This document shows, one piece after another, positions 1 to 14,851 of a DNA stretch of 32,000 bases; the first letter of the stretch is position 1, and the number at the start of each line of letters is the position of its first letter. Source of the stretch: Candidatus Harpocratesius repetitus (GTDB taxonomy: Archaea; Asgardarchaeota; Lokiarchaeia; Sigyniarchaeales; Promethearchaeaceae); assembly GCA_021498095.1 (NCBI GenBank), contig JAIZWK010000001.1, forward strand, positions 3,870,001-3,902,000, written 5' to 3'. Under the pieces are notes generated by a model. The model did not search any database. It was not told where the DNA came from and was given only the letters and a program-made list of their open reading frames with translations. Made by a program: the position numbers and the translations under genes.

Positions 1-493
1 TCTTATAGAACTTTCTCTTGTTGTAATATCATTTTTGGTAAATATTGCATTTAATAATGGAATTAAAATAAAAAAACTAAAAAATATAAACGTTGAAGTC
101 AAAATACATTGGGCTGATTTGAATATGAATAGACCAGTAAATAATTTTGAGCAAGGATTAGCTATAATTATTAAAAATATTGGAGAAACACCTGTAATCA
201 TCTCGAACTGTGGAATTTCTGTCACAGGACAAAGAAATGAGATATATTTCAGAAATGTAAGTCCAATTAAATTACCATTTAGATTATTAGAAGGGGAAAT
301 ACTTACTTTAATGGGGAGATTCGCAGATTTGAATAATTTTCTAAATCATAAAAAATTATTTAATGAAACCGTTCATGTAAAAGGATTTATTTTTACTGAT
401 TTTGGGGAAAAAATCACTACTAGTAATTCCTTGGAATATAATGCTGAAGAAATTCAGAGAATGCATTTAAATGGTAGTGAAATAAACAATTAA
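1..493 (+). CDS. Membrane-anchored hypothetical protein with beta-rich (Ig-like?) domain, 5'-partial
   Basis: The frame is open from base 2 (LIELSLVVISFLVNIAFNN, a hydrophobic helix), so the gene starts left of the window and not at TTG 35. Motifs IIIKNIGETPVIISNCGI / LPFRLLEGE / FIFTDFGEK align by eye with the C-terminal domain of 763..1710. Confidence 0.75.
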   Translation, partial: LIELSLVVISFLVNIAFNNGIKIKKLKNINVEVKIHWADLNMNRPVNNFEQGLAIIIKNIGETPVIISNCGISVTGQRNEIYFRNVSPIKLPFRLLEGEILTLMGRFADLNNFLNHKKLFNETVHVKGFIFTDFGEKITTSNSLEYNAEEIQRMHLNGSEINN

Positions 494-812
494 AGATTTT
501 TTTTCGTATTTCTGTGGGAATCGAACCAAAATCATGATTTCCGTGCATGATATAATCATCTTCAATGCGAATTTGCTCGTCATCATCCTCAATTTCTAAA
601 ATCACATAAATATCAATGAGTTGGATAAATTTCTTCAGATCCGGGGATTTGATACATGAGAGATCAAGAGGGATCTTGACTTCTTTCATGGAATGAAAAT
701 AGGATGACAGTTCAAAAATGGGGATGTGATCGGGGAAGTATAATAAAAAAACAAATAGAATTTCATTTCCATTCTTGAAGTTCAATAAGATCTGAATAGA
801 ACATCTCTTCAT
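420..812 (-). CDS. Hypothetical protein (acidic patch), start uncertain
   Basis: 130-aa ORF with a protein-like core (KKFIQLIDIYVILEIEDDDEQIRIEDD), but it overlaps both neighbours by 50-74 bp. It may be a fragment. Confidence 0.35.
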   Translation of the reverse strand: MKRCSIQILLNFKNGNEILFVFLLYFPDHIPIFELSSYFHSMKEVKIPLDLSCIKSPDLKKFIQLIDIYVILEIEDDDEQIRIEDDYIMHGNHDFGSIPTEIRKKIFNCLFHYHLNAFSEFLQHYIPRNY

Positions 813-1710
813 TTGACCTAAAATATGCTTTAACTTTTAGAGGAAATGTGTATCCATTTTCTTTCGAAAGTTCATCAAATTTTTTTCTAATAATATATGC
901 TGAACAAGATTCTCCATCATTTAGTGTTTTTGGTAAATCCGTTCCCAATATTTTCTGTGGATTTTCCATTTCTAACATATTTTCAGTAAATCCATCATAA
1001 AATAATTTACCAGAAGTAATCCCTTTTGGCGGTGCGATTGTTATTTTAATTTTTTCATCTTCATGCATTATTCCATATTCTTGTATAATTATTGGTCTTG
1101 TGCTAATGTTTACTGCTTGTATTGAAATGATCGCTTCCTTAGTAATCGTTGGTGCTAATGTTACTGGATTCAATGAAACTTTCAATTTTTTTTTCTCAAC
1201 ACCACCTTTCGAAAGAATGATTTCTTCTATATCTTCAATTTTTAACCTACGTTTAGATCCGTCCATACGAACCCAAAATTCATAAGTTAGAAAATTAGGT
1301 GCTGATGGATTATCCCCTTGTCGAATTCCGTAAATTCCATTCTCTTTAGGTATTATTTTTATTGCTACAACATATTTTCCATTTGAAAGTGGAATTGGCT
1401 TAAATATTGGAAAGGGACTTAATATTGGATCAATTTTTTTTGGTAAAACATCATTCAATATCGTTTTTATCGCATCAACCTTAGTCTTTTCAATTCCAAT
1501 TACTTTTATCGGTGAATCTTGAATCCCAAAAAATAAAAATCCAACCAATGATCCATTTGCAAATGCAATAATATCACTTCTTAACTCATTTACATCGTTA
1601 TGAAAATCAATTTTATATTCAATTTGAAATGATTCAAAATTCATAGGATCAGCTTCAATTTTCATTAGTAATGCTTCATCTAATTCGTCAAAACTTGGAA
1701 TGGAAGACAT
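763..1710 (-). CDS. Schlafen/AlbA_2-domain protein with C-terminal beta-rich domain (putative defence RNase)
   Basis: AlbA_2 hallmarks ESFQIEYK, DIIAFANGSLVGFLFFGIQD and VRMDGSKRRL. ATG at 1710 (MSSIPSF) is preferred over TTG at 1725. Confidence 0.85.
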   Translation of the reverse strand: MSSIPSFDELDEALLMKIEADPMNFESFQIEYKIDFHNDVNELRSDIIAFANGSLVGFLFFGIQDSPIKVIGIEKTKVDAIKTILNDVLPKKIDPILSPFPIFKPIPLSNGKYVVAIKIIPKENGIYGIRQGDNPSAPNFLTYEFWVRMDGSKRRLKIEDIEEIILSKGGVEKKKLKVSLNPVTLAPTITKEAIISIQAVNISTRPIIIQEYGIMHEDEKIKITIAPPKGITSGKLFYDGFTENMLEMENPQKILGTDLPKTLNDGESCSAYIIRKKFDELSKENGYTFPLKVKAYFRSNEEMFYSDLIELQEWK

Positions 1711-1806
1711 GTATGATTGAATCAAATTAAATTTTTATTATTTATCACCTTATTAAATTTTTAAAATTTGATTTAGGACTATTTTTTGATTAATAATGAA
1801 ATTTAA

Positions 1807-2289
1807 TCATTAATATTTCTTATTGAAGCTAAAGAGATATTACTCCGATTTAATGAAAAATTTAACAGATTAGAAAAAAACTTATTTATTAATTATTAAA
1901 AAAATAAATCCACAAAAACTCAAGTATAATTGAAGTTTACAAGAAAAGAAAAAGATGTTCAATATGAACAGAAATCTAATCTCCCTGATTCTCGCATAAT
2001 TGATGGTTTCATTCTTATTTTAAGACAATTCGTTCAAAACAACGATCCTATCAGTATTAGGAATATGTAAAAATTATATGATTCTCTCTCAAATAAACTC
2101 ATTGAATAAATAAAAGATTTTTTGGAGTATATTTTAGGATTTAGCAAATCTGAGAAGAATGATATCAAATTTCCGGAATTAAAAGATAGTGAGATTCAAA
2201 TCGAAACCAGTGATATAAAAGAAATTTCTGCAAAAATGAAAGAATTATTGCGATTTATTAAAGAAAAAACCTGTGAAAAATATAATTAG
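1807..2289 (+). pseudogene. Decayed hypothetical gene
   Basis: Frame +1 reads AKEILLRFNEKFNRLEKNLFINY*...LPDSRIIDGFILILRQFVQNNDPISIRNM*KLYDSLSNKLIE*IKDFLEYILGFSKSEKNDIKFPELKDSEIQIETSDIKEISAKMKELLRFIKEKTCEKYN*. This is protein-like text broken by TAA codons, with no clean start. Confidence 0.6.
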
Positions 2290-2384
2290 GTTGCAACTCC
2301 AAAAAAACGATGAAAGATATTGATATTTTTTTGTTTTCACGGAAACTAGAATTATAAACGAATAATTTGAAGGAAAGTTTTACA

Positions 2385-3240
2385 ATGAAACTTCTAAATA
2401 AAACTTTAAAGACAATTACAGTTGAAGATATTCTCGAGATAGATAATCAACCTGAAAATTTTGAATCTTTGCAAATTGAATATATGATAAAATTTGATGG
2501 AAATACTTCTGAATTAAGAAACGATTTTATACAATTTGCTAATAGTCATCAAGATGGCATTCTAATTTTTGGAATACAAGACGATCCAAAAAGAATAATA
2601 GGGATTGAGAAAAATGAAGTCGATGGAATAAAAAAAGTTTTAAATAATGTATTAAAAAAAATGGTCTCCCCAATACTTTCTCCTTTCCCAGAATATAGAG
2701 CAATTAGAATCAATGAAGAAAAATATGTGTTTCTCATCAATATTAAAGCCAAAGAAATAGGTATTTATGCAATTCAAGGGAATGATAACCCAAATCATAA
2801 GGATTATTATAAATATCAATTTTGGATACAATTAGATGGGAATAAACACCGAATGAATATTCATGAATTAGTGGAGTTAATTGAACAAAAGAAAAACGAG
2901 TTATAAAAGAGTTAGATGTGAGTTTACAGACAGTTATTATCCCTAAAATACGAAAAGAACTCCAATTTTATGTGAAAGCGGTAAATAAATCAACTCCTCC
3001 GATAAAAATTACATCGTATGGTTTAAAAATAGTCAATTCTGATTTTGAAATTGTAATCATACCAAACAGTATTCAAAACATATGAGTCTGTTCACCTTTA
3101 CCTAAAATCGATAACGATGGAGATGATTGTATTGCGTTTTATCCTAAATTAAATTTAACCGAAGATTTAAGGAAACATGGATAAATACTAATGATAGAAA
3201 ATTCTATTTAAAAATTAGTGATCTTATTCTAAGTGATTGA
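2385..3240 (+). pseudogene. Second Schlafen/AlbA_2 paralog, C-terminal domain frameshifted and interrupted
   Basis: 2385..2906 aligns closely with 763..1710 (FESLQIEY, FIQFANSHQDGILIFGIQD, PILSPFP, FWIQLDGNKHRM). The homologous C-terminal domain continues in the -1 frame from ~2888 (KELDVSLQTVII...VKAVNKSTPPIKITSYGL...LPKIDNDGDDC), with TGA at 3083 and TAA at 3182, and a last piece in another frame ending at 3240. Confidence 0.8.
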
Positions 3241-3256
3241 AAATATGAAAAAAAAA

Positions 3257-3625
3257 TTATTCTATATCTTCATTATCAAGTGAATTAAACTGTTGTTTAT
3301 TTTTATAGAAAATATCTTTCTCAGGAATTTTTCCATCAGCTTCATATATTTCACAACCATGAATTTTGTTTTCAGCGATAAATAAAAATTCTTCTTTGCA
3401 ATTTTCACATATAGCATCTAATTCTACAATAGAACCACTTTCATCAGAAGTATCGGCACCTAAATCTGGTGGAGAAACCCCAATCCTCAAACCTTTATAA
3501 TTTGAAAAATTACATTTTTTGTGATAAAATCCGATTTCAAAAGATCCTCCTTCTACCATTAACTCAAACATTCCTTCTGCACATTCCCATTTCCCATTTA
3601 AGAAAAAGTCTCGATTATTTACCAT
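3257..3625 (-). CDS. Hypothetical protein, possible metal-binding (CxxC)
   Basis: 122-aa ORF with ATG start and normal composition. Contains CENC plus further Cys/His residues. Confidence 0.7.
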   Translation of the reverse strand: MVNNRDFFLNGKWECAEGMFELMVEGGSFEIGFYHKKCNFSNYKGLRIGVSPPDLGADTSDESGSIVELDAICENCKEEFLFIAENKIHGCEIYEADGKIPEKDIFYKNKQQFNSLDNEDIE

Positions 3626-3759
3626 AAATTATGATAATATTTACATTATTTTAATATTTATTATTCACTTTTCAGACATGCTTACTTTGTAGACATTTAA
3701 GTGACGGTTAAAAGAACTCTAACTTATATTTTTACTTTCGATAGACTCGTTGATTTTTT

Positions 3760-3941
3760 GTATCATAAGTGTGATTACACTTGTATTACAGGAAAAAAGA
3801 TAGAATTCGACACTTCTGATTTGGTATTTAAGGGTATTACAAGTGTGATACTTTTAGTACAACTTCCAAGGGGATCCGTTCTTCACGTATTACAAGTGTA
3901 ATACGTGAATCTGTATCACTAGTGTGATACAATTGTATTAT
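3760..3941. promoter_or_regulatory. Cluster of palindromic GTATYAC-N4-GTRATAC sites (operator- or centromere-like)
   Basis: Sites at 3760-3777 (imperfect), 3834-3851, 3887-3904 (inside a perfect 13-bp inverted repeat at 3882-3909) and 3913-3930, with extra half-sites at 3783-3789 and 3935-3941. The spacer is AAGT/TAGT. The cluster lies between divergent genes. Confidence 0.7.
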
Positions 3942-4075
3942 AAAATTAATATTCAAATCAAAGAATTTATTTTGTTAAATCTATTAAAACATGGATTACG
4001 GTTCACTTTTTAATTCAATTTTTTTATTTATTAGTAAATATACTATTTTATTAATAAAACATAATTGTTAATTAT

Positions 4076-5018
4076 ATGACATCTGAAATAGATTGGTCTA
4101 ATATTATATCTTGGATCTCACTTTTTCTTTCAATTTTTGCTCTACTACTAAACTTTAAACAATTTAGCATTGAAAACAAACCCAAAATTGTTTCTACAGG
4201 AAGCATTAAATATAAAATTGTAAATATAAGAGGCTTTAGTAATTTTTTTTAATTTAATCAAAATCTATCTTTTGAGCCAATTTTCATGACAATACTTCCA
4301 TGCATCCAATTATTATTTGAGTCGGTATTTTTACAATCTTAAATTCGATTAATAATTTCATATTTTTATCATTTTTCTTTGAATTATTGACTTAATCTTA
4401 TTTTTTTTCTTTAACTATCTTTCGACAAATTTAAAATTAGGATAGATTTGGGGATTGTGGAAAATTTAGAGAAGATTTTCGGATTTCCTTCAATTCTTTG
4501 AATTCTGCTATAACCTCATAAAACAATGTAAAAAAAAGCATTTTTTTATGGTAAATAACGAAATTAAAGTTTATATAAGTAATAAGCACAAATCTAATTA
4601 TATTATACAATCTATAATTCTTCGAATTAAATATGCTTATTTTTCAAATAACAGAATCCTTAAATGGTTAACTCTTAAGAAATTAATTTTCAATAAAAAA
4701 GAAATGATTTTTGAAGGAAAAAATTCGCGATTGAACAAATTTCTTATTTCTGAAGGAAATAAAGTACCTTTAAATCTACCATTCAACTTGTCGAATACTC
4801 AAAAAATAATTATTGAAACAGAAAACATCGGTATATTTCTATCTTCATTTACAAAAAATCTTCAAAATGGACAGGTAATTTATAAAAAACCATATAAATT
4901 TCAAATTTGGATCGAAAATAATCATGGAAACAAATTTTCTCTGATAAAACGATTGGGAATTCCAATTTGGATCGGTTTTTATCCAAAAAATTGTAAAAAA
5001 ACTCAAATTAAATTCTAA
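4076..5018 (+). pseudogene. Membrane-anchored beta-rich-domain gene apparently split by a 298-bp insert
   Basis: 4076..4252 encodes 58 aa with an N-terminal hydrophobic helix (NIISWISLFLSIFALLLNF-KQ..KPKI). 4548..5018 encodes the matching domain (IKVYISN..NYIIQSIIL, LPFNLSN, IWIENNHGNKF). Removing 4250..4547, which lies between ATTTTTTT direct repeats, gives one in-frame 214-aa protein. Confidence 0.5.
4548..5018 (+). CDS. Hypothetical beta-rich-domain protein (may be expressed alone, or be the 3' part of the split gene)
   Basis: 156-aa ORF with ATG start. Motifs are shared with 1..493. Confidence 0.55.
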   Translation: MVNNEIKVYISNKHKSNYIIQSIILRIKYAYFSNNRILKWLTLKKLIFNKKEMIFEGKNSRLNKFLISEGNKVPLNLPFNLSNTQKIIIETENIGIFLSSFTKNLQNGQVIYKKPYKFQIWIENNHGNKFSLIKRLGIPIWIGFYPKNCKKTQIKF

Positions 5019-5155
5019 TATTGATGAGAAAAAATGATTTTTCTAAAAAAATTTTTATGATATTTTTTTCTTTACGTGTTTTTGAATATATATTTTTTTT
5101 TCACTTTGATACTCTTATTAAGTTAAGAAATCACGTTGAATATACTATCTACTAA

Positions 5156-8100
5156 TCAATAATTGATCTTTAACTCAATTTCATTAAGTAATTCATCGTT
5201 TACATGATATAATTTTGTAACTATTTTATCGTTCATTTTTAATGTATCATCATGAAATGAAGTATATTCTTCAAATTTATTCCAGAATTGAATTATATTT
5301 GTAAAAACTTCCACATCTTGAATTTTGATTTTACTTTTTTTCATATAATCTAAAAATTCGTCTTTTCCTTGCATTATACGTTGTAATAGTGAGAAATACT
5401 TATTTTTAAGAGAGATTCCTTGATTCATTTCAATATAATCTAAGAAAATTTCAAGATCTTTCTTGAATTTCTTCCCTCTATCAATTAAATCTAAAGTGTT
5501 TTGTTCGAGATTCTTAATTAAATCCTTATTTTCATTACTAATTATAGGAATAGGGAAATTTTTTATATCTCCGGAATTAAGTTTTGGAAATAATTGCTTT
5601 TTCGCATTTGCACTTCTTTTATTGTGAATATATGTCATTATTTTTGAATTTAATAAACCTAAAATATAAATTAAAGAATAATTCATATTCTTTTGCGTTA
5701 GAACCGCACAGGTATTTTTTACAATTGCATCTTCAGGAATATATGATGCCCAAATAGTTGGATTTACAACTTGTCTCACGACTACTTTTTCTTCTTTAAA
5801 AATTTCTTCTTTTCTTGATTCTGCAAGATGATCTCCATAATCAATATAACTGTCCTTTAAACCACTCATCCAATAATAGTTAAACTTATGTATATTAATT
5901 CCATCAATAAACATTCTATTATGTCGTTTAGTTTTTTTTGGACTGAGATAAATATTCTTTTTCTTATCTTCAAGTGTCTGTTTTTTGGTTGGATCACTGA
6001 ATGATCGTCCTTTTCCTGTTTGATATACTTTGACTCCAAAAATTATATTATAGTATTTTTTCATAGGAACTGTAAATTCTTTTAAAAAGTGTAATTCATC
6101 TACTTTTAATCGTAATTTATTATCTAAATCACTAAATTTTAACGATGTAAATGTATTTTTTTCTAATTCAAATATAGACAACTTATTTCTATCTAAATTT
6201 TTTAAATCCTTCAATAATATTCCATGATTTTGTGTTTTATTTAATAACGTAAAAATACAGCAAGGATAATTCACTTCTTCAAAGATATCGTCCCCTAAAT
6301 CTATAATTTTTATATTATGAGATCTATTTAGTAATAATTTTCGAACGTCAACAAAATCAGGCATTTCAATTATTCCGTTTGGAACAATATAACCTAAAAC
6401 ACCATTTTCAGATAATAAATTCAAGCCTTGTTCTATAAACATCTTGAAAGAATTAACTACTCTAAAAGATGATTTCTTATATTTTTCTTTTAAATACTCG
6501 AATGTTTTTGAATCAAATTTTGCACCCCAAGGTGGATTACCAATTACAATGTCAAATTTTTGTTTATTTAATTTACCCTTAAAAGCATTTTCCCAAGAAA
6601 ATGCTTTATTACCTGCAAATTCTGGATCATCAATTAAAGAATTTCCACATTTTATATAATCATTTAAATTTGTTAATTTTTCATTCTTTCTACATATTTT
6701 AAAGAAGATAGACAGTTTTGTAATTTCGACTGATTCTGCGTTCAAGTCTACACCAAAGATATTATTCATTATAATCCATTTAATTTCTTGAATTTCATTA
6801 AATTGAGTCATTTGAACGAATTTTACCTTCTTTTTCCCTTTATACCCTTTTCCACGATCTTTTTTAACAACAGAATATTCTGTTTCAAAATCACCTCTTG
6901 CAATTTTAAAGTCAAGAATTTCACGTTTAATTTCTAACAAAATTTCAATTGATTTCAGCAAAAATGCACCAGATCCACAAGAGATGTCAACAATTTTCAT
7001 TTCTTTTATTTTTCTATCTAATTTTTCAATAGAATCACTATATTCATCAATAAGAGTTAAAATAGAATTGCTTCCAGATTTTGACAAATATGGTATTATT
7101 GTATTTCGACAAATATAATCAGTAATATATTCTGGAGTATAATAGATTCCATCGGTCTTTCTTTTTGTGATTTCTGCTTCTTCTCGTAAAATTTCAATAT
7201 CTGAAATTGATTGCTCGAAAATATGTCCTAATATCTCAACAGAAACTTCAGAATTAAAGTCGAATGATCCCATAATTAATATGTTTTTTATGATGGGATT
7301 GATTTTTCCTTCAAAAACGTTAAAAATTTTTTCAACATCAGAATTTAAAGTAGGATTCTCCTTTAATTTGGAATTTTCATCAAACTCTTTGAAGAATTCT
7401 TCAGATCTTAAATCCCTAAAAGACAGATTCTTTGGGAATATCTCTTTAAAAAGTTCACCATTAAATCCAAATAATTTAATAGGGTGATCTGACCCTTGAT
7501 CTAGTTTCCTAAATAACTCTCCAATTATTTTTGATATAAATATAGATTCTTCATCGAAGATTAAAGGATTTTCTAATAATTTCAGAATAGTCCTCTGAAC
7601 GATTTGTTTTTCCATTTTACCTGTGCTTTCTGCAAAAAATATAAAAATCATTCGATTTAAAAAAAGTTGAGCATATCTAATTGAGGTTTTTCTATCAAAA
7701 CCACATAATTCATATTCTTTGATTAAATATAATCGAGTTTCGTGAAATATTTTATAAAATTCATTAGAAAATTCCTTCTCTTCACTTTTTGTTTCATAAG
7801 TCAATTCATCATGAAAGTTTTCATCAAATATTGATTTCTTTGAGAATAATGCAATAAATTCTTTCAATTGGTTAATATCATCAGCTATTTTTAAAAATTT
7901 AAAATAATAAAATCTTTTTAGACCTGTGTGCAAATTTAATAAAATAAAATCGTTATAATTTGTACATACTCCAAATGGTATTTGATGAAAACTGATATAT
8001 GACCAGAGTTGCTCTATTGGTGTCTTTCTTCCAAATTTCGTTCTATTTTGCTTTTTGAATAAATCTTTTGTTTTTAATCCTTTTACTTCAAAACATACAC

Positions 8101-8365
8101 CATAATGGTTAGTTTTTTGATTAATTATTGCAAATTCCATATTATCTTTCTCATGAGAAAGACTTTCAAGACTTATATCATAATTTAAAATATTTTTCAA
8201 GATAATGTTTGCAAATTCTAAATAAGCATTCTTTTCACTTTCTAGTTTTCCCTCATTAATGTATTCAAGCCATTTCTCCGCATTTTTTATTTGTTTTGTG
8301 TTTAATTCAATGTTATTCAAAATCTTTTTTATTGCTTTATTAGAGTACAGATTAGGTTTCATCAT
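5156..8365 (-). CDS. Type IIG (Eco57I-like) fused restriction endonuclease / N6-adenine methyltransferase
   Basis: N-terminal PD-(D/E)XK region (CFEVKG, TPIEQLWSY, GVCTNY), GIYYTPEYITDYIC, motif I DISCGSGAFL, motif IV IVIGNPPW and a TaqI_C-like target recognition domain (IYILGLLNSK). GAGG lies 5 nt before the ATG. Confidence 0.92.
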   Translation of the reverse strand: MMKPNLYSNKAIKKILNNIELNTKQIKNAEKWLEYINEGKLESEKNAYLEFANIILKNILNYDISLESLSHEKDNMEFAIINQKTNHYGVCFEVKGLKTKDLFKKQNRTKFGRKTPIEQLWSYISFHQIPFGVCTNYNDFILLNLHTGLKRFYYFKFLKIADDINQLKEFIALFSKKSIFDENFHDELTYETKSEEKEFSNEFYKIFHETRLYLIKEYELCGFDRKTSIRYAQLFLNRMIFIFFAESTGKMEKQIVQRTILKLLENPLIFDEESIFISKIIGELFRKLDQGSDHPIKLFGFNGELFKEIFPKNLSFRDLRSEEFFKEFDENSKLKENPTLNSDVEKIFNVFEGKINPIIKNILIMGSFDFNSEVSVEILGHIFEQSISDIEILREEAEITKRKTDGIYYTPEYITDYICRNTIIPYLSKSGSNSILTLIDEYSDSIEKLDRKIKEMKIVDISCGSGAFLLKSIEILLEIKREILDFKIARGDFETEYSVVKKDRGKGYKGKKKVKFVQMTQFNEIQEIKWIIMNNIFGVDLNAESVEITKLSIFFKICRKNEKLTNLNDYIKCGNSLIDDPEFAGNKAFSWENAFKGKLNKQKFDIVIGNPPWGAKFDSKTFEYLKEKYKKSSFRVVNSFKMFIEQGLNLLSENGVLGYIVPNGIIEMPDFVDVRKLLLNRSHNIKIIDLGDDIFEEVNYPCCIFTLLNKTQNHGILLKDLKNLDRNKLSIFELEKNTFTSLKFSDLDNKLRLKVDELHFLKEFTVPMKKYYNIIFGVKVYQTGKGRSFSDPTKKQTLEDKKKNIYLSPKKTKRHNRMFIDGINIHKFNYYWMSGLKDSYIDYGDHLAESRKEEIFKEEKVVVRQVVNPTIWASYIPEDAIVKNTCAVLTQKNMNYSLIYILGLLNSKIMTYIHNKRSANAKKQLFPKLNSGDIKNFPIPIISNENKDLIKNLEQNTLDLIDRGKKFKKDLEIFLDYIEMNQGISLKNKYFSLLQRIMQGKDEFLDYMKKSKIKIQDVEVFTNIIQFWNKFEEYTSFHDDTLKMNDKIVTKLYHVNDELLNEIELKINY

Positions 8366-8519
8366 TTTTCCTCAAGATAACTATAATATATTCTCTATTC
8401 AACATATAATAAAATTTACTTCGATTTTTTTTATGATTCATCAATCTCGGAATACAATTATAATATGGAAAACCTTACTACAGGGAGTTTTTTTCTAGAT
8501 TTTTCATTACAATTTAGTT

Positions 8520-9110
8520 TGTCCCAACTTGCGATTTCCCCTTCTGCACTTTACAATCCTACCCTTTTGGATTTTTTTAAGTAGTAAAAAGAAGTCCTGC
8601 AGCTATTTTTTCATACTTTTTCATTGAAGGATTGTAAACCCTTTTGCGATTTTTGAAGAATTGAAGGTTTTGTAAAAATGCAAAATATATCTACAATCGC
8701 TGTAATGCATTTACAAGCACTACGTCTACAGAATGATTTGAGAGATTTATGAATGATCGTAAACTCTTCTAACTCACATTTTCGTAGAATTGAGCAACCG
8801 AAAGAGAAAAAACGATTTTCTTTTTTTTATCATCCTGTTGTAAAGACCCCCTCTAGATAATTACCCATTTTCGGGTAATGAATATTATAGTATATATTTT
8901 TTAAATAAATTTGCTAACAGAAATATGTTAGTATTCTTTTGGCGATTAAAATTGATTTACGAACGATCGTAAACTCAATCCAAACGTATTTTCATTGATA
9001 ATTTCTATTTATGGTGATGGTTATTAACTAATCTAAAAATCAACAAAAAATTTTGATCTTCAGGTCAAATAAAAAAAAGAATAATGCTATCGTATTTATG
9101 TTAGCATAAG
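8520..9110. repeat. Palindrome- and repeat-dense non-coding segment
   Basis: 11-bp perfect inverted repeat TTTACAATCCT (8550-8560 / 8628-8638). 23-bp palindromic direct repeat GATTTAYGAAYGATCGTAAACTC (8744-8766, 8954-8976). ATTACCC-N6-GGGTAAT (8860-8879). 22-bp imperfect palindrome TGCTA...TATGTTAGYA (8912-8933, 9085-9106). Confidence 0.75.
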
Positions 9111-9123
9111 AAAAAAAGTTAGT

Positions 9124-9507
9124 TTATGGTGTTCGCTTCTTCTTTTTCTTCTTATATCTCTGCTGAAGCCCTGCCTTTCGTGATTTTCCTGCAAAACCAC
9201 CTCTTCCTAATGTATCTACTTCAAGATAGTCATATCGATCGGGTGAATGAAGCCATCTTTCATCTTTAACAACTTGTTTATTCTGTTCAGACATATCTTT
9301 GAGTTTAGCTCGAGTAGATCGTTTCGCTTGTGCTTTTCGAGCTTCAGCTCTCGCGATCTTCCTGTATTTCTTTTTTCTACTTTTATGATTAAGTAGTCTT
9401 ATAGTCTCAGAACTTCTGCTGTAACGAGTTACGAGAACATCTCTAAGTTCTCCTCGAATTTTTCTTTTACATTGATAAACGTGTGGATAGATTGTTTGTT
9501 TACTCAT
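9124..9507 (-). CDS. Highly basic orphan protein (putative nucleic-acid binding)
   Basis: 127 aa with ATG start. Hand count gives 22 K + 18 R against 12 D/E. C-terminal KKKKKKR. Confidence 0.7.
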   Translation of the reverse strand: MSKQTIYPHVYQCKRKIRGELRDVLVTRYSRSSETIRLLNHKSRKKKYRKIARAEARKAQAKRSTRAKLKDMSEQNKQVVKDERWLHSPDRYDYLEVDTLGRGGFAGKSRKAGLQQRYKKKKKKRTP

Positions 9508-10574: not shown

Positions 10575-11540
10575 ATGAATCGTATCCATAATTTACTCGA
10601 TCAACTAGATAAAGAATTACTTAGTGAAGAACCTAAAATACTTAAATGTATGAAAATGGGGCGACTTGTAGCTAAATATTATAATGACACCACTGTTTTA
10701 GAATGGATAAATAAAGAACTAAATGGTTATGTCCAAACTGATAAGTTACTTGAAAAATCTAATTTACCCAAATATAGATTATTAACATGTATGTTAAAAA
10801 CACCTTATTTTGAACAACATCCAATAGGATGGAATCAAGCTCTACAAATCAAAGGAAATAGGTTTGATAAAATGCCCGATTTCAGTTTTTTGGGGAGTTT
10901 ATCGCAGGTAATTGACTTATCAAAAAAAGAAATAATCGATTTTACTCGTGATCTTAATGGAGCTAATTATACTCTTGTAATCAACGGGAGTGAATTTAAA
11001 AATGTAATTATGGGTGTTACATTAAAACTTTTAGATTATGTTAATGAAAAAATGGAATCATTGGGGAATACTCTTGAAGATACTTGTTTAATGAATATTT
11101 TCAATAAGTTTCACGGTATAGCAAAGAGATTAGAGAATAGATATGATAATCGTCCAACAATAATAATTGAAAACGAATACGATGTTCAAGATTTACTTAA
11201 TGCTCTTTTATATGAACATTTTGATTCCATTCAGGTTGAAGAATATGGACACATGTATGCAGGAAAGCGACCCAGAGTTGATTTTTTTTTGAGATATGAT
11301 GAAATTGCTATAGAAGTAAAGTGTGTAAGAGATTCAAATCATGCAAATAGAATCTTAAGAGAAGAAATAATCTTAGATATTGCATATTACTCTAAAAGAA
11401 AGGAATTTAAACACCTATACTTCTTTATTTATGATCCTAAGTCACTTCTATTAAATAGAACTGATTTTATCAAAGATTTAGAAGAAAATGTCCCCGAGAA
11501 TTACTCTTCAATTAAAATTGTAATCAAACCAGATTTATAA
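10575..11540 (+). CDS. AbiTii-like N-terminal domain fused to a PD-(D/E)XK restriction-endonuclease-like domain (DpnII/MboI-type REase)
   Basis: N-terminal LEWINKELNGY...LPKYR is AbiTii-like. C-terminal IENEYDVQDLLNALL, RVDFFL, IAIEVK and LYFFIYDP are REase-like. Confidence 0.8.
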   Translation: MNRIHNLLDQLDKELLSEEPKILKCMKMGRLVAKYYNDTTVLEWINKELNGYVQTDKLLEKSNLPKYRLLTCMLKTPYFEQHPIGWNQALQIKGNRFDKMPDFSFLGSLSQVIDLSKKEIIDFTRDLNGANYTLVINGSEFKNVIMGVTLKLLDYVNEKMESLGNTLEDTCLMNIFNKFHGIAKRLENRYDNRPTIIIENEYDVQDLLNALLYEHFDSIQVEEYGHMYAGKRPRVDFFLRYDEIAIEVKCVRDSNHANRILREEIILDIAYYSKRKEFKHLYFFIYDPKSLLLNRTDFIKDLEENVPENYSSIKIVIKPDL

Positions 11541-12258: not shown

Positions 12259-13989
12259 ATGGAAAAATTAAATAATTCGTTTATAAAAATTGTAGCTTTG
12301 CAATTTGATAGTGGTGATATTTGCATTTTGCATCCTTACTTTAATTTTTTAATAGGTAAAAATGGTATAGGAAAAACCCAAATCATACAATCTTTACAAA
12401 GGATCAAATCTGCTGGATTTGGAAAAAATGAAAAAATAGATCGAAATTTTTTATTAACATTGAACGAATTATTGAAAAAACAATATAAGGAAAAAAAAAG
12501 AATAATTGAGGAAAGTATTTTAAAATTATGGGAAAACTATCTTAAGAAAAATCAATCAATTCAATTTTTTAAAAAGAAAATTATAAAACAGCATCCTTCT
12601 CATTTATCCACAATATATTATATCTCTTTTCAAAAAAAACAAAGACCAATAGGAATATATTTTGGAAATTCAAGACTAAATCCTCAATTTTCAGCAGATG
12701 CACAAGATCATAATGATTCTAGTTTAGACAGAATATTAGGTAAAATGATCAACAATCTTATTCAAAAAGCACTTCAAGAAAAAATAAAACAAGAAAAGAG
12801 ACAAGATTATAATGATGTGTTAATTCCTTTATTTCAAGATTTTAATAAAATAATAAAGAATACTGAATTGGATTCACTAAATAGGACTGAATTTATTTTT
12901 AAATCAAAAAATCCTAATTTTCCAACACCTTATACTGTAAAAAATTTATCAGATGGGGAAAAAAGTATTTTATTTTGGACTCTCTTGTGTAAAAAAGATG
13001 AAATAAATGGATCTCTGATATTATCTGATGAATGGGATAATCATTTACATCCGGATATAATACACGATTTAATTCGTTTTTTAAAAAAACAAGCAGAAAA
13101 ACTAAATTTACAATTCATATTTAGTACTCATTCTCCTCAAGCAATATTATCTTCCGATCCAAGTGAGTTATGTACTTTTGAACAAGATATAAAAACATTT
13201 GATTTGTATGTTCAACCAAAATATTATTTGGAAGGAGCCTATGAGCATCTTGGAGCATTACCTCTAACTACCAAAGCTTATTTTATAATTGAAGGAGAGA
13301 CAGAAATGGAATTTGAATATTATTTACCATTTGTTGATCATGTAAGGGTTCTGAATATGAAAGGATGTTCCCGAATCAAAAATACAGTCAAGTTTTTATC
13401 AAACTGTGGTATAAAAGTGGTTGCTATCAGAGATAGGGATGGTATTTCGGATGAAGAAATTGATAAATTAAAAAAAGATTCCATATATACTTGGCTAATA
13501 AGCGATATAGAATCTGAAGTTCTTCGTAATGATGTTTTTATGCAAAAATGGATTAAGGAGAAGTCTCAATTAGAAATAAATAAAAGCGATTTTATGAGTT
13601 TGAAGGAAAAGGCACTGAATTCCATTCAAAAAATTGAATCATGGAAAAAAGATTATCTCACAAGTAGGTTTAGAAGTGAATTGAATAAAGGAAATACTGA
13701 AGATTGGGATGAATTGATTAAGAGATGGAATAAAAATTGGAATGATAAAACACCTGAAGAAAAAATTCGCGGAAAAGATCATATGAAACAATTATTCAAA
13801 GAAATACGTGAAAAATATAAAGATAAAATAAAGAGACCTGAACAGTTATCGGTTAAAATATGCGTGAAAGATTGGATAAAATATCTTGGTGAATATATTA
13901 AGAAAGAAGAATATACTGAATTGCCATTACCTTTAAAAAAAAGTTTAATTGATTTGCAAAAACAAATAAAGAGTAATAAAAAAAAATAA
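12259..13989 (+). CDS. ABC/AAA_21 ATPase fused to a TOPRIM (OLD / DUF4435-like) nuclease
   Basis: Walker A LIGKNGIGKT, signature LSDGEKS, Walker B/D-loop LILSDEWDNHLHP, H-loop FSTHSP. TOPRIM motifs YFIIEGETE and AIRDRDG, followed by DIESEVL. Confidence 0.85.
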   Translation: MEKLNNSFIKIVALQFDSGDICILHPYFNFLIGKNGIGKTQIIQSLQRIKSAGFGKNEKIDRNFLLTLNELLKKQYKEKKRIIEESILKLWENYLKKNQSIQFFKKKIIKQHPSHLSTIYYISFQKKQRPIGIYFGNSRLNPQFSADAQDHNDSSLDRILGKMINNLIQKALQEKIKQEKRQDYNDVLIPLFQDFNKIIKNTELDSLNRTEFIFKSKNPNFPTPYTVKNLSDGEKSILFWTLLCKKDEINGSLILSDEWDNHLHPDIIHDLIRFLKKQAEKLNLQFIFSTHSPQAILSSDPSELCTFEQDIKTFDLYVQPKYYLEGAYEHLGALPLTTKAYFIIEGETEMEFEYYLPFVDHVRVLNMKGCSRIKNTVKFLSNCGIKVVAIRDRDGISDEEIDKLKKDSIYTWLISDIESEVLRNDVFMQKWIKEKSQLEINKSDFMSLKEKALNSIQKIESWKKDYLTSRFRSELNKGNTEDWDELIKRWNKNWNDKTPEEKIRGKDHMKQLFKEIREKYKDKIKRPEQLSVKICVKDWIKYLGEYIKKEEYTELPLPLKKSLIDLQKQIKSNKKK

Positions 13990-14326
13990 CTAAATATATG
14001 GTAAAGAGTAGGATTAAGCAATCGCTTTAAATATAGCGTAAAGCAAATAGAAAATGTGGTATTTATGCTTTAAATCAGAGTTCACAAAAAAATCAAATAA
14101 ATTTGCTTATTTTCCAATAACTCCAATAGTTTATAATTGTGTGGAGAGTGAATTAAAGGAAAATTGCTTATTTAAAAAAAAGTATGTTCAGTCTTATTTT
14201 CATTGTTCATTATTATGGTTATTTCATAACATGAACTTATCCAAAAAACTAAAAAATATCATGATCAGATTACGTTACATCGTAATGGTCAATTTTGATC
14301 AGTAAAAAATTATCATTATCATTAAG

Positions 14327-14851
14327 CTAATTCAAGAATTCCCATTTTTGAATTAAAACTCTGACGTAATTGTGAATTTGATCTAAAATTTTTTTATATC
14401 CTTCCCAAGAATCACCATAGGGATCATCAATATCACCTTTTAATCCTGCAGCTTCTGACAATGTGAGAATTTGGGGAGCTTCAATAGTTTGGTTTGGAAA
14501 GTATTTTGAAGCATTTTTATAATACATATCCAGAATTTCCTTTTTCTGGTTTTCTTCCATCACAAGGATAAGATCATGTTGATCGAGTAAACATCGCGAG
14601 ATTTTTTTTGGTTGAAATCCATTTGTTTCAATATTCATAAGATGAAGATATTGGGCAGAATGAGGAGACATCTGATTTAATACAGGATTTAACCCAGCAG
14701 AATCAACTTTAATCTTTTGAACGAGTTCATTTTGGCTTTGATTTATATAATATTTAAATAAATACTCCGCTACAGGAGATCGACAAATGTTACCCAGACA
14801 AATAACAAGAATTGATTTTGGAATAGTTTCTTTCGAATTTACACTATACAT
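14327..14851 (-). CDS. Low-molecular-weight protein-tyrosine phosphatase family
   Basis: P-loop ICLGNICRSPVAE, VDSAG and the general-acid loop DIDDPYG. Confidence 0.92.
   Translation of the reverse strand: MYSVNSKETIPKSILVICLGNICRSPVAEYLFKYYINQSQNELVQKIKVDSAGLNPVLNQMSPHSAQYLHLMNIETNGFQPKKISRCLLDQHDLILVMEENQKKEILDMYYKNASKYFPNQTIEAPQILTLSEAAGLKGDIDDPYGDSWEGYKKILDQIHNYVRVLIQKWEFLN

Follow-up and report, generated by a model that had tools for sequence, protein, structure and literature searches.

A portable C-terminal domain with a predicted Ig-like fold on a Schlafen nuclease and a membrane-anchored protein of an Asgard archaeal defense island

What does a small beta-rich domain do when it stands at the C-terminus of a Schlafen nuclease and, in the adjacent gene, behind membrane helices? 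The question arises from a 32,000-nucleotide stretch of the genome of the Asgard archaeon Candidatus Harpocratesius repetitus, called the window here (Table 1). For the first 5,018 positions, the initial annotation had listed one motif series in four genes, here named A to D, twice on a Schlafen nuclease and twice on a membrane anchor, and had proposed that the two forms could co-assemble or sense a virus at the membrane. The coordinates and motifs that it quoted are all present in the sequence, and in A, B and C they mark a common domain of ~135 aa, called X below, which is a genuine portable domain found behind several N-terminal modules. Both Schlafen genes, B and C, thus bear the domain, while a membrane anchor is shown to bear it only once, in A; D has no recognizable copy. 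Two of the four genes, C and D, are dead, by frameshifts and stops and by an insertion, respectively. Throughout, G000 denotes the source genome, G007, G010, G013, G078, G079, and G114 are other Asgard genomes, and P00xx numbers denote proteins.

Domain X in genes A, B and C

In gene B, the Schlafen/AlbA_2 part has an intact catalytic motif, ESFQIEYK (Ex4ExK), at residues 26-33 of P0001, and the same motif class occurs in six Schlafen-X relatives. B has an orthologue in G010, to which it is 79.9% identical in the Schlafen part and 52.6% in the C-terminal part, and in 15 of 21 pairs X is less conserved than the nuclease. PADLOC matches B through its Schlafen part alone (PDC-S50), and none of the members has a Pfam match over X. 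A tblastn search of plasmids gave only Bacillus AlbA_2 proteins with C-termini other than X; among them, an AlbA_2 "ATP-binding protein" that overlaps the start of X was rejected as an X protein.

Comparison of single sequences connects only B and the tail of C, and word-indexed searches with the B C-terminus and with protein A returned the query alone. A has no homologue in 40 relatives, where a weak match to L-aspartate oxidase is a chance hit. A two-sequence profile of the B C-terminus and its G010 orthologue, searched with HMMER over 1.84 billion representative proteins, gave 25 proteins, and the 20 with full-length matches, A being left out, were made into a hidden Markov model (HMM) of the X family. 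Run on 17,986 stop-to-stop open reading frames (ORFs) of the own genome, this profile matches B (1e-48), the C tail (E 2.1e-12) and A (E 9.4e-7, HMM positions 16-128), and nothing further below 0.01. When its stops are read through in a search of the genomes, the C tail reaches E 8.4e-21. In a profile-profile comparison with hhalign, A is joined to the family with a probability of 87% (E 3.8e-6), and the alignment covers the whole domain and pairs exactly the motifs of the initial list. The X domains of A and B are 17% identical, and with so low an identity the domain of A is, judging from sequence, not a local copy of that of B.

Protein A (P0002) has 202 aa, of which the 163 3' codons lie inside the window. 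Two N-terminal hydrophobic helices (~residues 7-27 and 36-54) precede domain X, with a charge of +3 after the second.

D gives no sign of this homology. Against the X profile it scores 4.6 bits (rank 105 of ~18,000 ORFs), the intact D orthologue of G007 scores 1.0 bit (rank 1,596), and hhalign gives D and the X family a probability of 0.2%. A word-indexed search with the G007 orthologue returned the query alone, a match of D to CoiA-like nucleases is due to chance, by way of a "WIxNGHG"-type word, and the AlphaFold model of D from a two-sequence alignment (pLDDT 41.9) is beta-rich but unusable. In a proteome rich in Ile, Lys and Asn, composition alone can give the motif series of D, which on its sequence is probably a small membrane protein either unrelated to X or unrecognizably distant from it.

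The AlphaFold2 model of X from B, made from a 21-row alignment (pLDDT 84.9, pTM 0.77), has about nine strands, one helix and a disordered insert, and its fold, as modeled, is that of an immunoglobulin-like (Ig-like) beta-sandwich. Variation is greatest between strands 4 and 5, in a loop where B and its G010 orthologue have an insert of 20-25 aa. Neighbors among solved structures are generic Ig-like or arrestin-like sandwiches, namely a type VI secretion system effector domain, archaeal pilins, ApaG, FnIII, the MG domains of alpha2-macroglobulin, C3 and C4, and integrin, and a profile search with X over the sequences of the PDB gave nothing below E 0.07. Nearer matches (TM score ~0.7) come from predicted-structure libraries, with three unnamed clusters whose members are 150-170 aa long and come from Bacillota and phages; structure-only neighbors also include HNH- and TIR_2-fused proteins. 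Such predicted-structure matches are leads and may not reflect homology. Language-model neighbor searches likewise returned only unnamed clusters.

Exchange of N-terminal modules and the role of X

X is C-terminal in every family member. Upstream of it are found Schlafen domains (P0007, P0009, P0013, P0019, P0023 and fragments), a Swt1-type HEPN domain (P0017, from an Odinarchaeota metagenome-assembled genome (MAG); Pfam 1.2e-9, PADLOC 4.5e-29), a DUF4145-like helical domain (P0010 and P0014, a weak match), LRV/HEAT repeats with a propeller (P0026), or one or two hydrophobic helices (P0012, P0020, P0024, P0025, P0027, a G013 protein and A). The charge distribution and the positive-inside rule suggest that X of the transmembrane (TM) forms is cytoplasmic. 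The N-terminal types do not separate in a maximum-likelihood tree built from X, on which the starred branches force at least three changes for Schlafen and at least two for each TM type; a single clade (97/97 support) holds Schlafen, DUF4145-like, HEPN, LRV, two-helix and one-helix forms. Because of this intermixing, the sequences indicate that X has recombined repeatedly with different N-terminal modules. P0019 and P0009 are 47% identical in X and only 33% in the Schlafen part. The domain is rare and mostly Asgard: of 400 Asgard genomes searched, 12 have it, counting G000, all from two families of one order, and its distribution is patchy.

Our preferred reading, in which we have a moderate degree of confidence, is that these proteins are independent single-gene sensor-effector fusions built on a portable X rather than parts of a two-part machine. 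X would sense a viral protein, B would cut tRNA and A would perturb the membrane. B would be a Schlafen tRNase-type effector that stays inactive until its C-terminal X recognizes an infection cue; by analogy with the bacterial class pSlfn5 (see below), the likeliest cue would be a structural or assembly protein of a virus, to which X would bind directly. The activated nuclease would then cut tRNA, which would stall translation. In A, the distant X would lie on the cytoplasmic side of the two membrane helices, and the same sensing event would cause these helices to damage the membrane.

The co-assembly proposed in the initial annotation amounts to a two-part module, in which A and B would associate through X, with the RNase either recruited to the membrane or controlled by sensing there. 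The two genes lie side by side, with 270 bp between their 3' ends, and have the domain in common, which fits this idea. However, the two genes are convergent and thus not co-transcribed, and their X domains, at the low identity given above, are on separate branches of the tree. In G010, the orthologue of B is preceded by a small HTH_7 gene homologous to the HTH_7 of G000, but an unrelated ORF occupies the position of A. Neither a second X gene nor a conserved neighbor was found at 13 other loci, for each of which 7.8-18 kb of sequence was at hand, and X is nearly always single-copy: three copies are present in G000, one in nearly all of the other genomes that hold X. The Schlafen and TM forms are therefore not found together at these loci, an outcome that the initial annotation had named as refuting its proposal, and co-assembling partners are quite improbable. 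A complex prediction for the X domains of B and A gave a score of 0.00, which is no answer and evidence neither way.

It could also be that A and the other TM-X proteins are small membrane proteins of an ordinary kind, outside defense, and that A came to lie near B by chance or by hitch-hiking in the island. Ig-like folds are ubiquitous, and A is a singleton without a close homologue and with several near-invariant residues of X missing. Yet the TM-X forms P0012, P0020 and P0024 nest within the well-supported clade of X domains fused to Schlafen, HEPN and DUF4145-like modules, which implies that a single sensor had its N-terminal module exchanged recently, and A itself lies inside a dense defense island. 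We give this explanation little weight.

The sensor role of X is best approached through pSlfn5. Prokaryotic Schlafens, which are present in four archaeal phyla, act as antiviral effectors and are combined with many different sensors; 3.9% of them carry an Ig-like domain and form the class pSlfn5 (Perez Taboada et al., Nat Microbiol 2026, PMC13056530). In RorSlfn5 of Raoultella ornithinolytica, which purifies as a 261-kDa hexamer, the Ig-like domain binds the T5 tail assembly chaperone, after which tRNA anticodon arms are cut; a catalytic role is described for the Schlafen Ex4(E/D)xK motif, a swap of the Ig-like domain transfers the trigger specificity, and the sensor is more variable than the nuclease (PMC13056530). 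B resembles this class in its N-terminal Schlafen with the Ex4(E/D)xK motif and C-terminal Ig-like beta-sandwich without a Pfam family, in being a single gene in a defense island, in a nuclease that is more conserved than the C-terminal domain, and in the complement and integrin Ig-like domains among its structural neighbors. In contrast, B is archaeal (Asgard) and has ~315 aa, versus the ~380 aa implied by the 261-kDa hexamer. By analogy, B may work like pSlfn5, without an assignment to the pSlfn5 family. The initial annotation had left the choice between a sensor and an oligomerization domain, and on this analogy (PMC13056530) a sensor is the best reading.

The other possibility is that X does not sense infection, but is a conserved scaffold for oligomerization or auto-inhibition, or has a conserved small ligand or a nucleic acid as its binding partner, with the cue being sensed in another way. 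Its polar and Gly/Pro motifs are kept over Schlafen, HEPN, TM and LRV fusions at 15-50% identity, and it is left open for pSlfn5 whether the nuclease or the sensor drives oligomerization (PMC13056530). On the other hand, the conserved motifs sit at predicted beta-turns of hairpins, as fits determinants of the fold, X diverges faster than the nuclease, and trigger specificity moves with the Ig-like domain in pSlfn5 (PMC13056530). A cyclase or other signal-making enzyme is not among the conserved neighbors of X genes. We regard a role other than infection sensing as unlikely, although less so than the two alternatives above.

Several points weigh against independent sensor-effector fusions. The motifs N-K-S-x-R-P, D-G-E and T-N-D-G persist over all effector types and could reflect a ligand or interface that is itself conserved, rather than a sensor of viral proteins that evolves fast. 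A is without several near-invariant residues of X (Arg, Cys, Pro, Ser) and, grouped with the one-helix protein P0025 on the tree, has a very long branch; for these reasons its role may differ, or A may be decaying. The TM helices may be mere anchors and not effectors. The likeness of X to the pSlfn5 Ig-like domain is one of architecture and predicted fold, and the X-bearing proteins are known from sequence and models. To our knowledge, there is no known virus of this organism that could be the source of a trigger.

Relation to other defense systems

That X is a portable Asgard infection-sensor cassette which can drive at least three unrelated effectors, a Schlafen tRNase, a HEPN RNase and bare membrane helices, is a tentative proposal. 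If it is true, TM-X proteins of 140-200 aa such as A would be among the smallest one-protein abortive-infection systems, and an Ig-like sensor of the pSlfn5 type would not be tied to Schlafen. The locus places the combination of Schlafen and an Ig-like domain, which was shown to be functional in bacteria only in 2026, into the Asgard archaea, which among prokaryotes are closest to the eukaryotes; eukaryotic Schlafens are antiviral tRNases. A Schlafen joined to an Ig-like domain is thus already described, for bacteria, but the words "transmembrane" and "HEPN" do not occur in the text of that study, which reports no such fusions of the Ig-like domain (PMC13056530). In the other prokaryotic Schlafen classes (pSlfn1-55, and Cash, a Schlafen with Csx15 of type III CRISPR; PMC13462974), as is proposed for B, a Schlafen tRNase is an antiviral effector fused to a sensor, but there the effector is constant and the sensor varies. 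The new element here is the reverse modularity, with a constant C-terminal Ig-like domain and variable RNase, HEPN, repeat or membrane modules at the N-terminus. With the X HMM defined, a small set of constructs offers a way into the transplantation of sensors between effectors.

HEPN RNases of the Swt1-like type, known from defense islands (PF18731; PADLOC candidate PDC-M34B), provide a second RNase effector through P0017, in which HEPN is joined to X; this HEPN-X protein comes from the Odinarchaeota MAG and not from the window. For the membrane forms, the closest parallels in layout are CBASS Cap15, Pycsar PycTM and type III CRISPR Cam1, in which N-terminal TM helices are followed by a cytosolic C-terminal sensor and sensing leads to membrane damage. 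The TM-X proteins resemble them in having one or two N-terminal TM helices and then a small cytoplasmic domain. However, the sensors of Cap15, PycTM and Cam1 recognize cyclic nucleotides that a partner cyclase produces, whereas no cyclase is found among the neighbors of X, which is modeled as an Ig-like sandwich. No Cap15-like or other cyclic-nucleotide sensor is among the fold matches listed for X, so that membership of this family is unsupported. PADLOC gave no match for A, D, P0012 or P0025.

Gene decay and the surrounding island

C is a dead duplicate of B. The Schlafen parts of the two are 49% identical, and residues 179-291 of B align by tblastn to 2906..3181 in another frame (31% identity). 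C is dead because a frameshift near 2890-2905, in an A-rich run, leads to the TAA at 2904-2906, the tail has an in-frame TGA (3083-3085), the last strands are shifted again near 3180, and the catalytic Lys has become Met (ESLQIEYM); a TAA is also present at 3182-3184. Broken X genes are common: further ones are found at G079:C34, G114:C111 and G078:C32, and turnover of the family appears to be fast. Among these others, one is split by stops, one is a 78-aa C-terminal remnant and one has an in-frame TAA.

D is one gene split by an element that resembles a miniature inverted-repeat transposable element (MITE). The intact 219-aa protein of G007 aligns with its residues 1-46 to 4076..4213 and with residues 64-218 to 4551..5015, in different frames, and excision of 4227..4521 (295 nt) restores a single open frame colinear with it. 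The genome has 36 other blastn matches to it, with ~28 near full length and identities of 97-99.7% for several (best 99.7%); alignment of the copies with their flanks defined the ends, and the TA duplication was deduced from the insertion in D and a small number of aligned copies. Short, non-coding and in many copies, with terminal inverted repeats and a target-site duplication, the element has the features of a MITE and, judged by its copies, has been recently active. Since the repeat splits D and its removal restores the frame, D was killed by this element. Stowaway/IS630-type MITEs duplicate a TA target, and the element is like them: it is non-coding, with ~293 nt, ends in short, imperfect inverted repeats flanked by TA, is present in dozens of nearly identical copies and has inserted into a gene. 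The G007 orthologue of D (G007:C316, 1312-1971, plus strand, one TM helix) is the sole intact one and lies tail-to-tail with a DUF4238 protein (2084-3442, minus strand, Pfam 1.7e-21). DUF4238 is reportedly a single-gene antiphage system, and because of this neighbor D may also be island cargo.

Table 1. Coordinates of the features in the window and in the sequence before it.
Feature	Position	Strand	Basis or remark
Studied stretch (window)	G000:C1:3870001-3902000	forward	Source genome of one contig, 4.36 Mb, 31% GC
Gene A	starts 115 nt before window, ends 493 (in-window part 1..493)	plus	Intact; upstream extension read from genome
Domain X of protein A	89..421	plus	Residues ~69-179; family HMM built without A
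Gene B	763..1710/1725	minus	Schlafen/AlbA_2 and C-terminal X; P0001, ~315 aa
B, Schlafen/AlbA_2 nuclease domain	1234..1710	minus	Pfam PF04326, 51.7 bits (cut-off 25.3)
B, domain X and stop codon	763..1233	minus	P0001 residues 160-315; predicted Ig-like beta-sandwich, one helix, variable insert
Gene C, Schlafen/AlbA_2 part	2367..2906	plus	PF04326, 47.6 bits (cut-off 25.3); frame ends at TAA 2904-2906
Gene C, remains of X in two other frames	2876..3240	plus	tblastn of B, three-frame translation, family HMM
Unassigned 122-aa ORF between C and D	3257..3625	minus	CxxC-like pairs
Gene D	4076..5018	plus	One gene split by MITE-like element
D, 5' piece	4076..4226	plus	Short N-terminus, one TM helix, first strand; 52% identity to residues 1-46 of G007 orthologue
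MITE-like insertion	4227..4521	unstranded	~293 nt and TA duplication; imperfect terminal inverted repeats GAGGCTTTAG / GAGGTTATAG
D, 3' piece	4522..5018	plus	Beta-rich domain; P0003 from ATG 4548; 39% identity to G007 residues 64-218
Type IIG restriction-modification enzyme, Eco57I/MmeI-like	5156..8365	minus	Pfam Eco57I 5e-34; also TaqI_C, N6_Mtase, MmeI domains
AbiTii and DpnII/MboI-type nuclease fusion	10575-11540	plus	Intact; Pfam 3e-11 and 4e-39
AAA_21 (AbiEii/OLD-like) ATPase	12259-13989	plus	In the window
Serine recombinase	4399-5052 of G000:C1:3855001-3870600	minus	Resolvase 1.5e-32; upstream of window
Mrr_cat-HTH-TPR protein	7701-9368 of G000:C1:3855001-3870600	plus	Upstream of window
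HTH_7 remnant, 100 aa	14195-14497 of G000:C1:3855001-3870600	plus	Directly before gene A

The stretch is most likely part of a low-GC, decaying defense island of a Lokiarchaeia-type Asgard genome. The type IIG enzyme, the AbiTii-DpnII/MboI fusion and the AAA_21 ATPase extend the island to ~14 kb, and its GC content is 0.23-0.30, versus 0.33-0.36 beyond 15 kb. Serine recombinases, one of which lies upstream, appear in a list of defense-locus markers within a 2025 preprint (PMC12632615). The ORF between C and D has no significant family match (best Pfam E 0.07) and no match in PADLOC. Neighbors typical of defense islands also stand beside X genes elsewhere: the B orthologue in G010 has PLD, DUF6602 and a pair of radical-SAM and NYN RNase genes as neighbors, a SIR2-TPR gene adjoins P0013, and Eco57I-type enzymes are found as well. 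The G010 pair, 4 kb from the B orthologue, consists within G010:C1:240000-258000 of the radical-SAM gene (13080-13970, minus strand), which is viperin-like by eye, and then a Zc3h12a-type NYN RNase (13971-14450, minus strand). At 15-19 kb of the window, the GC content passes from ~0.25-0.29 to 0.33-0.36, and this marks the start of housekeeping genes.

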